From IMG/VR virus record IMGVR_UViG_2778261462_000004: a stretch of DNA of 27,940 nucleotides, one strand, 5' to 3'. Below, piece by piece: positions 1-27,940 of this stretch; the stretch's first letter is position 1; every line of letters begins with the position of its first letter. The DNA comes from a virus. Taxonomy: Duplodnaviria; Heunggongvirae; Uroviricota; Caudoviricetes. The notes below the pieces were generated by a model that was given only the letters and a program-made list of their open reading frames with translations, made no database searches and had not been told where the DNA came from. A program made the position numbers and the translations under genes.

Positions 1-1011
1 TTATAACGTTACTCCACCGTTAAGAGGATTCAGCGCGACGGCGTTCTGCAGGTAGTCAGGCGCAAGGTGAGCGTAGGCCATCGTCTGCTGAATGCTCGCA
101 TGCCCGAGAATCTGCTGCAGCGCAATTATGTTGCCCCCGTTCATCATGAAATGACTTGCGAATGTGTGTCGCAGGATGTGAGTTGCCTGATTGGGTGGTA
201 TGTCAGGTTTCACTCTGCGTAAAATTCCGCAAAACTTCTCATAATCGACCTTGAACAATTTAGCGCTAGCCTCCTCTTTAACTTTTTTCTCCAGTTCCTC
301 AGAAATTGGCACGGTTCGCTTTTTGCCGTTTTTGGTTTTCAAAAAGGTAACCCTGCAGCTTGTTATCTGTGCTGGTTTCAGTGTGGCAACTTCCGTCCAT
401 CTTCCGCCTGTGCTCAGGCACAAAAGCGCGACCAGCAAGTCATCACCAACCAAAACGCTTAACAGCTTCTCGATTTCTGATTTCTCCAGAAATGTCATTT
501 CCGGGTTGGCTTCCGCCAGTGGCGGCAGTCCATGAATAGGATGTTGCCCGGAAAACTCATCCAACTGGATTAGCTTGGTGAACATGCCCGATAAGCGGTA
601 CATGTCACGATTTATCGTCGCGGCGCTGATGCCATCACGCAGGCGCGTAGAGCGATAATCCATCAGAGCTCTTTTGCTAACCCGGCTCACCGGCATATCA
701 CCTATGCCGCTGATAGTCTTGAGCAGGTGATTAAACTCTTTTGTGCCGTGTTCATGGTTTTGTCCGTGATACTTCCACCAGACGTCAAGCAATTCCGCTA
801 AAGTGCGACGGTCTGCTCGCTGGCCTGCCCATTCTTTCTGGCTGGCATTGGCGATGGTGTATCGCTCAAATGCTACCGCCTCAGCCTTTCTTTCAAACTT
901 CCTGCGGATGCGTTTTCCATCGCGACCGCGAGGTCTAATGTCCACTTCATAGCGACCATCATCGAGCTTCTTAATTGCCATAAGAAAGCCCTCCGGCGCT
1001 GTGCTCACCAT
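1..1011 (-). CDS. int: P2-type tyrosine integrase (stop codon at window positions 1-3)
   Basis: 336-aa ORF; C-terminal catalytic signature visible (..ATHILRHTFASH.. and ..GHASIQQTMAYAHL.., the R/H-x-x-R and Tyr nucleophile region of tyrosine recombinases); sits 39 bp downstream of repressor C on the same strand as in the P2 C-int arrangement. Confidence 0.9.
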   Translation of the reverse strand: MVSTAPEGFLMAIKKLDDGRYEVDIRPRGRDGKRIRRKFERKAEAVAFERYTIANASQKEWAGQRADRRTLAELLDVWWKYHGQNHEHGTKEFNHLLKTISGIGDMPVSRVSKRALMDYRSTRLRDGISAATINRDMYRLSGMFTKLIQLDEFSGQHPIHGLPPLAEANPEMTFLEKSEIEKLLSVLVGDDLLVALLCLSTGGRWTEVATLKPAQITSCRVTFLKTKNGKKRTVPISEELEKKVKEEASAKLFKVDYEKFCGILRRVKPDIPPNQATHILRHTFASHFMMNGGNIIALQQILGHASIQQTMAYAHLAPDYLQNAVALNPLNGGVTL

Positions 1012-26080: not shown

Positions 26081-26299
26081 ATGTTTCATTGCCCGTTATG
26101 CCAGCATGCAGCCCATGCACGTACAAGCCGTTACATGACCGATACAACAAAGGAGCGTTATCACCAGTGTCAGAACGTGAATTGTAGCGCCACGTTCATT
26201 ACATTTGAGTCGGTGCAGCGTTACATTGTTAAGCCAGGTGAGGTTAATGCCGTCAGGCCTCACCCGTTGCCATCGGGTCAGCAAACTATGTGGATGTAA
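26081..26299 (+). CDS. ogr: late-gene transcriptional activator Ogr (zinc finger, 72 aa from ATG 26081)
   Basis: MFHCPLCQHAAHARTSRY.TDTTKERYHQCQNVNCSATFIT.ESVQRYIVKPGE..AVRPHPLPSGQQ.MWM, near-identical to P2 Ogr as recalled; GAGGTG RBS 7 nt upstream. Confidence 0.93.
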   Translation: MFHCPLCQHAAHARTSRYMTDTTKERYHQCQNVNCSATFITFESVQRYIVKPGEVNAVRPHPLPSGQQTMWM

Positions 26300-26304
26300 C
26301 CACA

Positions 26305-26341
26305 AACAAAAAGCCCCGCGATTGCGGGGCTTGTTTATTTT
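26305..26341. terminator. bidirectional intrinsic terminator between convergent ogr and the moron ORF
   Basis: GCCCCGC-gatt-GCGGGGC stem (26313-26330) flanked by an A-rich run upstream and TTGTTTATTTT downstream. Confidence 0.7.
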
Positions 26342-26751
26342 GACTTTGGCATTCCAAACATATGCGTTTTTGAGAGCATCACAACTTTAGCTCTGTCATC
26401 TGGCTCTTTACCCATCTCGTTACAAGTTGCGAGAGGCTGTTCGAGCACATAACCAAATGCTTTATGTTTATTCAGTACGTGCAATTCTTTAGTTGTTTTC
26501 ATGTAGGAATTCGGTACATCTTTTGTCCAAACATCCATGCAAATTCCTGAGCTTATGACCGCATCATAAATTTCAGGTGTAACTTGGTTTGCGTCCAAAA
26601 CGACAGTGACAATGTTATTACTTTCTTCTATTTCAATCGGTTGCCATAATTTTAGCTGCTTTTGCAAGGTTTTTACGTTATTCGTTTGGGCGTGGGCGGG
26701 GATAGACAGAAGAATGGCGACGACCGCAACTACCGATTTGAGGTTAAACAT
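26335..26751 (-). CDS. secreted/periplasmic protein of unknown function (138 aa), AT-rich moron
   Basis: Sec-type signal peptide MFNLKSVVAVVAILLSIPAHA-QT; AAGGA RBS 6 nt before ATG; candidate promoter (TTGTTT-17-TATAAA) upstream on the minus strand; AT-rich relative to the phage backbone by eye; two Cys in the mature part; no recognised family. Confidence 0.6.
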   Translation of the reverse strand: MFNLKSVVAVVAILLSIPAHAQTNNVKTLQKQLKLWQPIEIEESNNIVTVVLDANQVTPEIYDAVISSGICMDVWTKDVPNSYMKTTKELHVLNKHKAFGYVLEQPLATCNEMGKEPDDRAKVVMLSKTHMFGMPKSK

Positions 26752-26804
26752 GGAACATCCTTATTAAACATTGGGTTAAAAGTTGTTTATAACTCCTGCT
26801 GGAT

Positions 26805-26840
26805 GAAAAAACAAAGCCCCTGACGGGCAGGGGCTTTTTA
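26805..26840. terminator. hairpin with flanking A- and T-runs (bidirectional terminator-like), upstream of the moron
   Basis: GCCCCTG-acggg-CAGGGGC (26816-26834) preceded by GAAAAAACAAA and followed by TTTTT. Confidence 0.5.
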
Positions 26841-26960
26841 GTCAATGTGGACGCTATGTGGACAGCGTATGATATAAATCCATTTATATCATTATGTTAG
26901 GTGGTGTTTTCTGACACCATCCCTGTCTTCCCCCACATGCTGTGGGGGTTTTTTTTATCC
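26841..26960. other. candidate attR / prophage-host junction region (core not delimitable without attL)
   Basis: Tandem direct repeats TGTGGAC at 26846-26852 and 26857-26863 (resembling arm-type Int sites I recall for P2), 20-bp palindrome GATATAAATCCATTTATATC at 26871-26890, then an sRNA-like double hairpin; host fieF follows. Confidence 0.35.
26930..26956 (+). terminator. strong intrinsic terminator (CCCCCACA-tgc-TGTGGGGG + T8); possible 3' end of an sRNA or of the gene disrupted/abutted by integration
   Basis: 8-bp GC-rich stem, 3-nt loop, T8 tract read directly from sequence; no plus-strand CDS upstream of it within the window. Confidence 0.6.
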
Positions 26961-26984
26961 TCAATTTGCCTGCTGCTTAATGCA

Positions 26985-27011
26985 TTGCAGATGATTTGCT
27001 TCCGTTATACT
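26985..27011 (+). promoter_or_regulatory. candidate fieF promoter: -35 TTGCAG (26985-26990), 15-bp spacer, -10 TATACT (27006-27011)
   Basis: Hexamers read from sequence ~27 nt upstream of the fieF ATG. Confidence 0.3.
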
Positions 27012-27037
27012 AGCGTCAGTTGATAGCGGGAGTATTT

Positions 27038-27940
27038 ATGAATCAATCTTATGGACGGCTGGTCAGTCGGGCGGCGATTGCTGCGACGGCGATGGCTTCG
27101 CTGCTATTGCTGATTAAAATTTTTGCATGGTGGTATACCGGGTCGGTGAGTATTCTCGCCGCGCTGGTGGATTCGCTGGTGGATATCGGCGCGTCGTTGA
27201 CGAATTTATTGGTGGTGCGATATTCCCTGCAACCTGCCGACGATAATCACTCGTTTGGTCACGGTAAAGCTGAGTCCCTCGCGGCGCTGGCGCAAAGTAT
27301 GTTTATCTCCGGTTCGGCACTATTCCTGTTTTTGACGGGTATTCAACATCTGATATCTCCAACACCGATGACAGATCCAGGCGTCGGGGTTATCGTGACA
27401 ATTGTGGCGCTAATTTGTACGATTATCCTTGTCTCGTTTCAGCGTTGGGTGGTGCGGCGGACGCAAAGCCAGGCGGTGCGGGCTGATATGCTACATTACC
27501 AGTCTGATGTTATGATGAACGGCGCAATTCTGCTGGCGCTGGGGTTGTCCTGGTACGGCTGGCATCGCGCCGATGCTCTGTTTGCATTGGGAATCGGCAT
27601 CTATATTTTATATAGCGCGTTACGCATGGGATATGAGGCGGTACAGTCATTACTGGATCGCGCATTGCCTGATGAGGAACGGCAAGAAATTATTGATATC
27701 GTGACTTCCTGGCCGGGTGTTAGCGGCGCTCACGATCTTCGCACGCGGCAGTCAGGGCCGACCCGCTTTATTCAGATTCATTTGGAAATGGAAGACTCTC
27801 TGCCTTTGGTTCAGGCACATATGGTGGCGGATCAGGTAGAGCAGGCTATTTTACGGCGTTTTCCGGGATCGGATGTAATTATCCATCAGGACCCCTGTTC
27901 CGTCGTACCCAGGGAGGGTAAACGGTCTATGCTTTCATAA
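27038..27940 (+). CDS. fieF: cation-diffusion-facilitator family Fe/Zn efflux transporter FieF (YiiP), 300 aa, host gene
   Basis: GGGAG RBS; translation [49 protein letters not shown].. matches E. coli FieF as I recall it; six predicted TM helices and C-terminal cytoplasmic domain. Confidence 0.93.

Follow-up and report, generated by a model that had tools for sequence, protein, structure and literature searches.

What separates a P2-like prophage from the host gene fieF at its right end, and to which transcript does the strong terminator lying between them belong? The window (the whole stretch of 27 940 nt analysed here) begins, by its ORF list, with the stop codon of an integrase gene encoded on the minus strand, continues through a P2-like prophage and ends with the stop codon of fieF. 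The initial annotation had singled out positions 26841-26960 as a right junction with two TGTGGAC repeats, a palindrome and an sRNA-like double hairpin, and had suggested that the terminator closes a host transcript, that of cpxP with the small RNA CpxQ in its 3' end. In our analysis this segment is, with little room for doubt, the attR site of a WPhi-type P2-like (Peduovirus) prophage inserted between cpxP and fieF. The elements on which this reading is built are the following, with their evidence in brackets.

1..1011, minus strand: integrase gene of the WPhi type at the left prophage end (336-aa ORF, 326-aa core protein)
26813..26837, no strand assigned: ancestral ogr terminator, a GC-rich hairpin that has T runs on either strand (called by the terminator scan; inverted repeat I2; aligned with its counterparts in P2 and WPhi)
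26845..26863, plus strand: P-arm pair of candidate arm-type integrase sites, ATGTGGAC twice (consensus tgTGGaCa; alignment with P2 'protein_bind Int P arm')
26869..26892, no strand assigned: AT-rich inverted repeat ATGATATAAAT-cc-ATTTATATCAT (11-nt arms, 100% complementary; homology to the P2 IHF region)
26900..26912, plus strand: last 13 nt of the phage P arm, GGTGGTGTTTTCT (divergence from K-12 left of 26913; fold)
26913..26959, plus strand: 47-bp att core, GACACCATCCCTGTCTTCCCCCACATGCTGTGGGGGTTTTTTTTATC (47/47 with the K-12 empty site; common to attP, attB, attL and attR)
26913..26956, plus strand: orphan 3' part of CpxQ, nt 15-58 of 58 (identity with the K-12 cpxP 3' UTR)
26930..26956, plus strand: host copy of the cpxP/CpxQ Rho-independent terminator with an 8-bp stem, loop TGC and T8 (terminator scan, fold)
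27038..27940, plus strand: fieF, the host gene flanking attR (ORF list, genome matches)

Phage-host boundary and attachment core

The right part of the region is matched in all 5426 complete Escherichia coli genomes. In K-12 MG1655, which is prophage-free at this locus, the match is 100% from 26913 onward and corresponds to the cpxP-fieF spacer, the two sequences being identical from GACACCATCC... rightwards and unrelated to the left of 26913. Comparison with a prophage-free cpxP-fieF locus, which had been put forward as a check, thus sets the phage/host boundary at this nucleotide. For annotators of such prophages, the arm ends at 26912/26913 and the repeat at 26959.

To define the core we aligned the attR of the window with the attP sites of WPhi and Salmonella phage FSL SP-004, the K-12 attB, and both attL and attR of one lysogen. 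All share GACACCATCCCTGTCTTCCCCC[A/T]CATG[C/A]TG[T/A]GGGGGTTTTTTTTATC, flanked by host or phage arms, and the boundary between core and P' arm falls after ATC in the attP of WPhi and FSL SP-004 as well as in the attL of the E. coli lysogens 600029 and CAVP776. The core occurs once in the window, where it is identical to K-12 attB over 47/47 positions and to WPhi attP over 46/47. It consists of CpxQ nt 15-58, with terminator and U-tail, plus the three nucleotides ATC. The integration site had been described as different from the classical P2 core, and rightly so: the WPhi core stands in its place, and the 27-bp P2 core AAAAAATAAGCCCGTGTAAGGGAGATT has no match in the window at up to three mismatches.

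The CpxQ copy at attR

CpxQ is a 58-nt sRNA that RNase E processes from the cpxP 3' UTR, with the seed for nhaB and cfa at its 5' end (PMC6755755); its excision from this UTR is also described in PMC9438474. Measured back over 58 nt from the last U of the U-run, the sRNA spans UUUUCCUUGCCAUAGACACC...U8, positions 1487-1544 of the K-12 locus L001. The terminator is accordingly the 3' end of a host transcript, as had been suspected: the proposed alignment of 26895-26956 with the cpxP 3' end yields complete identity of 26913-26956 with CpxQ nt 15-58, and no plus-strand CDS lies immediately upstream to claim the terminator, the moron at 26335-26751 being encoded on the minus strand. The likeness includes the terminator and the U-tail. 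What differs here from genuine CpxQ is everything before it: the seed at nt 1-14, UUUUCCUUGCCAUA, is replaced by phage GGUGGUGUUUUCU, and the parental cpxP mRNA and its promoter are missing, phage DNA preceding the copy instead. As the window has no cpxP and retains no more of CpxQ than nt 15-58, we do not file the attR copy as a CpxQ gene.

The terminator itself, CCCCCACA-TGC-TGTGGGGG followed by T8 at 26930-26956, is called by the terminator scan and, with its U-tail, corresponds to the Hfq-binding module of CpxQ. Folding of 26895-26956 predicts two hairpins over 26900-26948 at -26.8 kcal/mol (z = -4.7), a value that none of 200 shuffled sequences equalled. The sRNA-like double hairpin of the initial annotation therefore holds insofar as both hairpins fold and the second is that of CpxQ, whereas the first is a chimera of phage arm and core. 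In this first hairpin 26900-26912 pairs with core positions 26914-26922, phage GGTGGTGT and core ACACCATCC forming the stem, and because phage P-arm bases pair with core bases it is a phage/host composite and does not belong to CpxQ. Its predicted energy is -12.4 kcal/mol here, -6.3 kcal/mol in WPhi and -5.3 to -10.6 kcal/mol in other arms of the WPhi clade; at loci L040 and L079 the predicted stem forms without core bases, and in the divergent arm of L052 the weak native CpxQ helix alone remains (-3.0). A reading of the first hairpin as a conserved RNA structure is not supported, given that it is weaker in other WPhi-clade arms and lost in L052, and that one of its sides is the invariant core. 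Within the WPhi clade, the arm motif GGTG, complementary to CACC of the core, is conserved. A resemblance between TGTTTTC just before the core and the CpxQ 5' end was taken as chance, as the match is limited to 7 nt in T-rich surroundings and the WPhi arm does not have it.

The Rfam search produced no CpxQ family, and its single return was a minus-strand match below threshold to RF02628 'Hrs1' (Rfam 15), with 28.2 bits at window positions 26912-26956 and 41.4 bits at K-12 positions 1472-1544 of L001, the gathering score being 56.4. Read as its reverse complement, the Hrs1 consensus resembles the 3' half of CpxQ, and Hrs1 may represent a homologue of CpxQ whose model was built from the wrong strand.

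The P arm and its candidate protein-binding sites

To the left of the core, TGTGGAC is found at 26846-26852 and 26857-26863, within copies of the 8-mer ATGTGGAC at 26845-26852 and 26856-26863 that start 11 bp, or one helical turn, apart. These are the only two occurrences of the 7-mer in the 27.9-kb window, a number close to chance expectation (2.6); their adjacency and their conservation in every related attP and attR are not due to chance. The pair is nearly invariant across 27 distinct P arms, and both related lysogens and WPhi attP have a second arm-type pair in the P' arm. P2-type integrases recognize arm-site repeats with the consensus tgTGGaCa on both sides of the core (PMC3448106), and in the P2 reference genome the stretch that aligns with our pair is annotated 'protein_bind Int, P arm'. 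The repeats had been likened to arm-type sites of P2, and by both consensus and annotation they can indeed be assigned as putative Int arm-binding sites. Immediately before them, the hairpin at 26813-26837 aligns in P2 and WPhi with the element annotated in P2 as 'rho-independent terminator for ogr transcript and F operon', of which it is the homologue.

The next element had been described as a perfect palindrome, GATATAAATCCATTTATATC (26871-26890). Strictly it is not one, because the CC at its centre is not self-complementary; it is a perfect inverted repeat with a 2-nt spacer, and its arms extend to 11 nt each (26869-26879 and 26882-26892). It aligns with P2 GAAATAAATCCTTTTATTTC, inside a P2 attP region annotated 'protein_bind IHF' (GAAATAAATCCTTTTATTTCAATTTATTG, NC_001895) to which window positions ~26873-26906 are homologous. 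A motif resembling the IHF consensus, TATCATTATGTTA, can be read by eye at 26887-26899 with one mismatch; it overlaps the right repeat arm, and WPhi and P2 have such a motif over this arm as well. Homology to the annotated P2 region thus suggests that the inverted repeat, which is conserved in WPhi-type arms, is the putative IHF region of the P arm.

The symmetry of the repeat could also be taken to mean that its main function is that of an operator recognized by a dimeric regulator of phage or host origin, or of a cruciform or hairpin signal, and not, or not only, that of an IHF site. The dyad is kept through paired substitutions, with GATATAAAT/ATTTATATC in the window, GAAATAAA/TTTATTTC in P2 (counterpart at 2323-2344 of L084) and L052, and GAAACAAA/TTTGTTTC in the Kluyvera prophage L078. 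Such pairing in P2, L052 and L078 is more than a plain IHF site requires. The annotation of the homologous P2 stretch as IHF-binding, the consensus-like motif shared by the window, WPhi and P2, and the loss of the repeat from L077 all argue against an operator or cruciform, and we know of no candidate second protein for the repeat, which we also count against it. We therefore regard a primary role of this kind as unlikely, and retain the assignment as the putative IHF region of the P arm.

attL, related lysogens and prevalence

As the attL of the present prophage lies outside the window, its CpxQ copy was deduced from two related lysogens. Strain 600029 carries the same moron-bearing prophage between cpxP and fieF, with an attR that matches the window. 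Its attL reads from the cpxP stop codon to ...UUUUCCUUGCCAUA (complete CpxQ), continues through the core to ATC and enters a P' arm with GTGTGGACACTATGTGGACAC. In CAVP776, the int of the prophage is 99.8% identical and attL is laid out in the same way. We further surveyed 74 loci with the 22-nt core from scans of viral and genome contigs, together with ten loci from the annotated collections and the window. What precedes the core is in every copy the cpxP 3' end or a phage arm, and what follows it, where the right flank is classifiable, is a fieF-side spacer or a P' arm; E. coli-type arms all lead into a core that starts with GACACC. From the attL of 600029 and CAVP776 and from these flanks it follows that integration duplicates the 3' part of CpxQ, the intact sRNA staying with cpxP at attL and the copy in the window being an orphan. 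It had been asked whether an att core overlapping the sRNA 3' end would separate or duplicate the terminator; the core does overlap it, and the terminator is duplicated, not destroyed, as the core recurs right after cpxP in lysogens of the same or nearly the same phage.

Among the 5426 complete E. coli genomes, 840 (about 15%) contain the P arm as detected in blastn mode, 793 contain a WPhi-type int and 4591 have the uninterrupted site. A megablast search with the 72-nt arm returned 2 genomes only, since short diverged arms lack an exact word of 28 nt. The arm-plus-core layout also appears at L077-L081, in Pseudocitrobacter, Kluyvera, Buttiauxella, Citrobacter and another Escherichia species, so the CpxQ tail serves as an attachment site across several enterobacterial genera.

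Two of the lysogens showed further peculiarities. In CAVP776 (L007, NZ_CM176338.1, 1-29130), two P2-like prophages lie in tandem between cpxP and fieF with a junction at ~1700-1900. The second has an Int 67% identical to that of the window and P' repeats TGTAGACAagaTGTAGACA versus TGTGGACActaTGTGGACA, with the same CpxQ core, and its arm type recurs in ~10 viral contigs; two integrase lineages with different arm sites thus use one shared core. In 600029, an IS1 element (L003 12289-12986) interrupts replication gene B, and this prophage copy is probably defective.

Terminator alleles and the probable position of strand exchange

The two copies of the terminator in a lysogen can be told apart by one base of the loop (window position 26940). 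Loop A (CATGATG) is found in WPhi-type phage attP and in all ~30 attL copies, while loop C (CATGCTG), the K-12 host allele, is found in four attR copies including that of the window and in 0 of the ~30 attL copies; in lysogens the loop base therefore separates the host copy from the phage-derived copy. Empty sites are themselves dimorphic at this base: roughly a quarter (~1053 of 4591) are 100% identical to K-12, and the empty site of E24377A (L082) has loop A and matches WPhi attP at 47/47 positions. The attL of 600029 (L003 9265-9283) additionally contains a compensated and equally stable stem variant, CCCCCTCATGATGAGGGGG, its attR having the host stem. Other stem variants supplied by phages also keep their pairing, with A-T changed to T-A in L042 and L067 as in 600029, GCC/GGC in L033 and a G-U wobble in L013, and represent natural covariation in the CpxQ terminator brought by phages.

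Together, the loop alleles and the stem variant of 600029 place the crossover, as far as polymorphisms can locate it, to the left of core position 23, that is, probably in the left 22 bp. In Kluyvera, Citrobacter and Pseudocitrobacter the divergent arms meet the core 2-3 nt further to the right, from which the interval would be CACCATCCCTGTCTTCCCCC. A 7-bp overlap CCATCCC, set between GACA and TGTC in GACACCATCCCTGTCTTCCCCC, is a candidate for the site of cleavage. Two other positions were considered and discarded. Exchange within the terminator loop, with the stem arms as inverted core sites, conflicts with 600029, where attL has both variant halves of the stem and attR both host halves. Exchange at the arm/core boundary, GGTGGTGT to ACACCATCC, would involve a spacer that differs between attP and attB. 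If the crossover lies left of position 23, the right 25 bp of the core would not be needed for homology at the exchange; they look like a phage replacement for the CpxQ terminator, as in relatives that integrate into tRNA genes or ssrA.

The most probable recombination scheme starts from a phage attP with the order ogr terminator, two Int arm sites, IHF-bending region, 47-bp core, Cox region, two further Int arm sites and int, in which the core is a phage-borne copy of the last 44 nt of CpxQ plus 3 nt. A heterobivalent tyrosine integrase would bridge arm and core sites, IHF would bend the P arm, and strands would be exchanged in the left 22 bp of the core. The products are an attL, which should lie ~130-190 bp to the left of position 1 and combine cpxP with all 58 nt of CpxQ, the terminator being supplied by the phage, and the attR of the window, in which the phage P arm is fused to the host's original CpxQ nt 15-58.

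Possible expression of the attR copy

We next consider whether the truncated copy gives rise to an RNA. A strict scan of 26250-27100 found no sigma-70-like promoter, although the same scan also misses the promoter of fieF. Given this result, the T-run hairpin that follows ogr, the missing seed and the variability of the first hairpin, the attR copy is most likely a silent by-product of recombination, which may nevertheless be able to terminate transcription in front of fieF.

Alternatively, the attR copy, or the identical attP module of the free phage, could be expressed as a CpxQ look-alike sRNA with an altered 5' part and the CpxQ terminator and U-tail. It would arise when transcription passes the ogr terminator or starts at a weak promoter in the arm, would perhaps be trimmed at UG/UUUUC, and would compete for Hfq or partially control the CpxQ regulon. 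The module points the same way as ogr and the late operon, it has a good fold, a terminator and U8, the window-type arm end GUGUUUUCU resembles the native processing context CUGUUUUCC, and CpxQ engages with Hfq very actively in the course of lambda infection (bioRxiv 10.1101/2024.10.31.621285). We nonetheless think it improbable that such an RNA is made. Besides the outcome of the strict promoter scan, the strong T-run hairpin at 26813-26837 separates the module from ogr, the module lacks the 5' seed of CpxQ, and the segment before the core is not conserved in the divergent arms L052, L077, L078 and L080. In the WPhi clade the energy of the first hairpin ranges between -5.3 and -12.4 kcal/mol, the hairpin is lost from L052 and compensatory changes are not seen, and the needs of recombination explain everything that is seen.

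A broader form of the idea would have the CpxQ-derived module transcribed into an RNA with an altered seed that imitates CpxQ and, be it in lysogens or in lytic growth, titrates Hfq or retunes the Cpx envelope-stress regulon, and P2-family integrases preferring the terminators of Hfq-dependent sRNAs (CyaR, RybB, CpxQ). We offer it as a long shot; were it true, the targeting of sRNA terminators would give P2-family phages a handle on host RNA regulation.

The duplication has practical consequences for work on CpxQ, the non-coding arm of the Cpx envelope-stress response. In about 1 in 7 E. coli genomes, the terminator half of CpxQ is supplied by a phage at attL, sometimes with compensated stem variants, and a second, truncated CpxQ copy lies upstream of fieF. 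The two copies are nearly identical, which affects the mapping of sRNA-seq reads. They also matter for the design of cpxQ deletions and probes in wild strains, and for the interpretation of differences in cpxP/CpxQ or fieF expression between lysogens and non-lysogens.

The moron beside the junction

The moron at 26335-26751 (minus strand) encodes a 138-aa protein with a signal-peptide-like N-terminus, for which the Pfam and PADLOC scans gave no match, and is accompanied by a terminator at 26311-26332. The insertion separates ogr from its ancestral terminator at 26813-26837, and a homologue occupies the same position in Salmonella phage FSL SP-004 and in the E. coli prophages of 600029 and CAVP776. 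This location, shared with FSL SP-004, puts the moron inside the element. That the real prophage boundary should lie elsewhere, for example left of the moron, with the hairpins belonging to moron or fieF regulation, has next to no probability: nothing beyond the foreign look of the moron speaks for it, and it is refuted by the K-12 alignment, in which identity begins at 26913 and not at the moron, by the free phage FSL SP-004, which has moron and arm between ogr and attP, and by the succession of moron and P arm in all related lysogens. No core repeat lies left of the moron.

Comparison with known systems

The closest relative among characterized phages is WPhi, with which the prophage shares Int, core, arm-site pairs, inverted repeat and insertion locus. 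The 120-nt stretch matches 62 phage records. The Int of the window, in which Pfam recognizes Int_N and Phage_integrase, is identical to WPhi Int at 313/326 positions (96%) and 96% identical to that of FSL SP-004. WPhi attB has been mapped to MG1655 coordinate 4104392 (PMC3448106), cpxP-fieF is given as the site of the 'Wphi1 (P2)' prophage in E. coli W (PMC3032704), and further prophages between cpxP and fieF have been reported in O157 and Salmonella Infantis. WPhi attP (AJ245959 181-299; NC_005056 22478-22596), situated between ogr and int, aligns with 26841-26959 at 91.6% identity (E = 8e-41), and FSL SP-004 attP at 99.2%. By the MG1655 gene coordinates and the 149-bp cpxP-fieF spacing in L001, MG1655 position 4104392 would fall inside the core. 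The window differs from WPhi in this P arm, where the 13 nt before the core are GGTGGTGTTTTCT here and GGTGCTTTTTTGT in WPhi, and in the 138-aa minus-strand moron between ogr and its terminator, which it has in common with FSL SP-004.

The WPhi site, its integrase, the arm consensus and CpxQ have all been published, and the finding is in this sense already known biology. In the literature that we searched we found no paper that links CpxQ with a prophage or an integrase or states the overlap. That the WPhi core equals CpxQ nt 15-58, the phage providing the terminator of the sRNA, may therefore not have been stated in print, and is a direct corollary of the published facts.

P2 attP has the same order of elements, annotated (NC_001895) as ogr/F-operon terminator, Int P arm, IHF, Int attP core, Cox, Int P' arm and int. 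The P arms align base for base, arm repeats and AT-rich dyad included, whereas the cores are unrelated and the 27-bp core of P2 is absent from the window. The P2 core presumably corresponds to the reverse complement of the CyaR terminator; an Rfam scan of this core for CyaR gave no match, the query being too short. P2-type prophages are listed at 'cyaR RNA' in E. coli W, K-12 and B (PMC3032704 Table 2). In E. coli W the same table places P2-type prophages at rybB, cyaR and cpxP-fieF; with CpxQ at the last of these, all three sites are 3' ends of Hfq-dependent sRNAs.

Phages can keep their target intact by gene restoration, in which the phage core copies the 3' part of a host RNA gene (PMC3448106). 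Phage 186 at tRNA-Ile and Fels-2 and SopEPhi at ssrA resemble the present prophage in integrating at a 3' end and restoring the host RNA gene. They differ from it in their target, which here is an sRNA derived from the 3' UTR of a protein-coding gene and not a tRNA or tmRNA, and in the case of 186 also in the integrase, which here is of the P2 arm-site type and not of the 186 type (PMC3448106).
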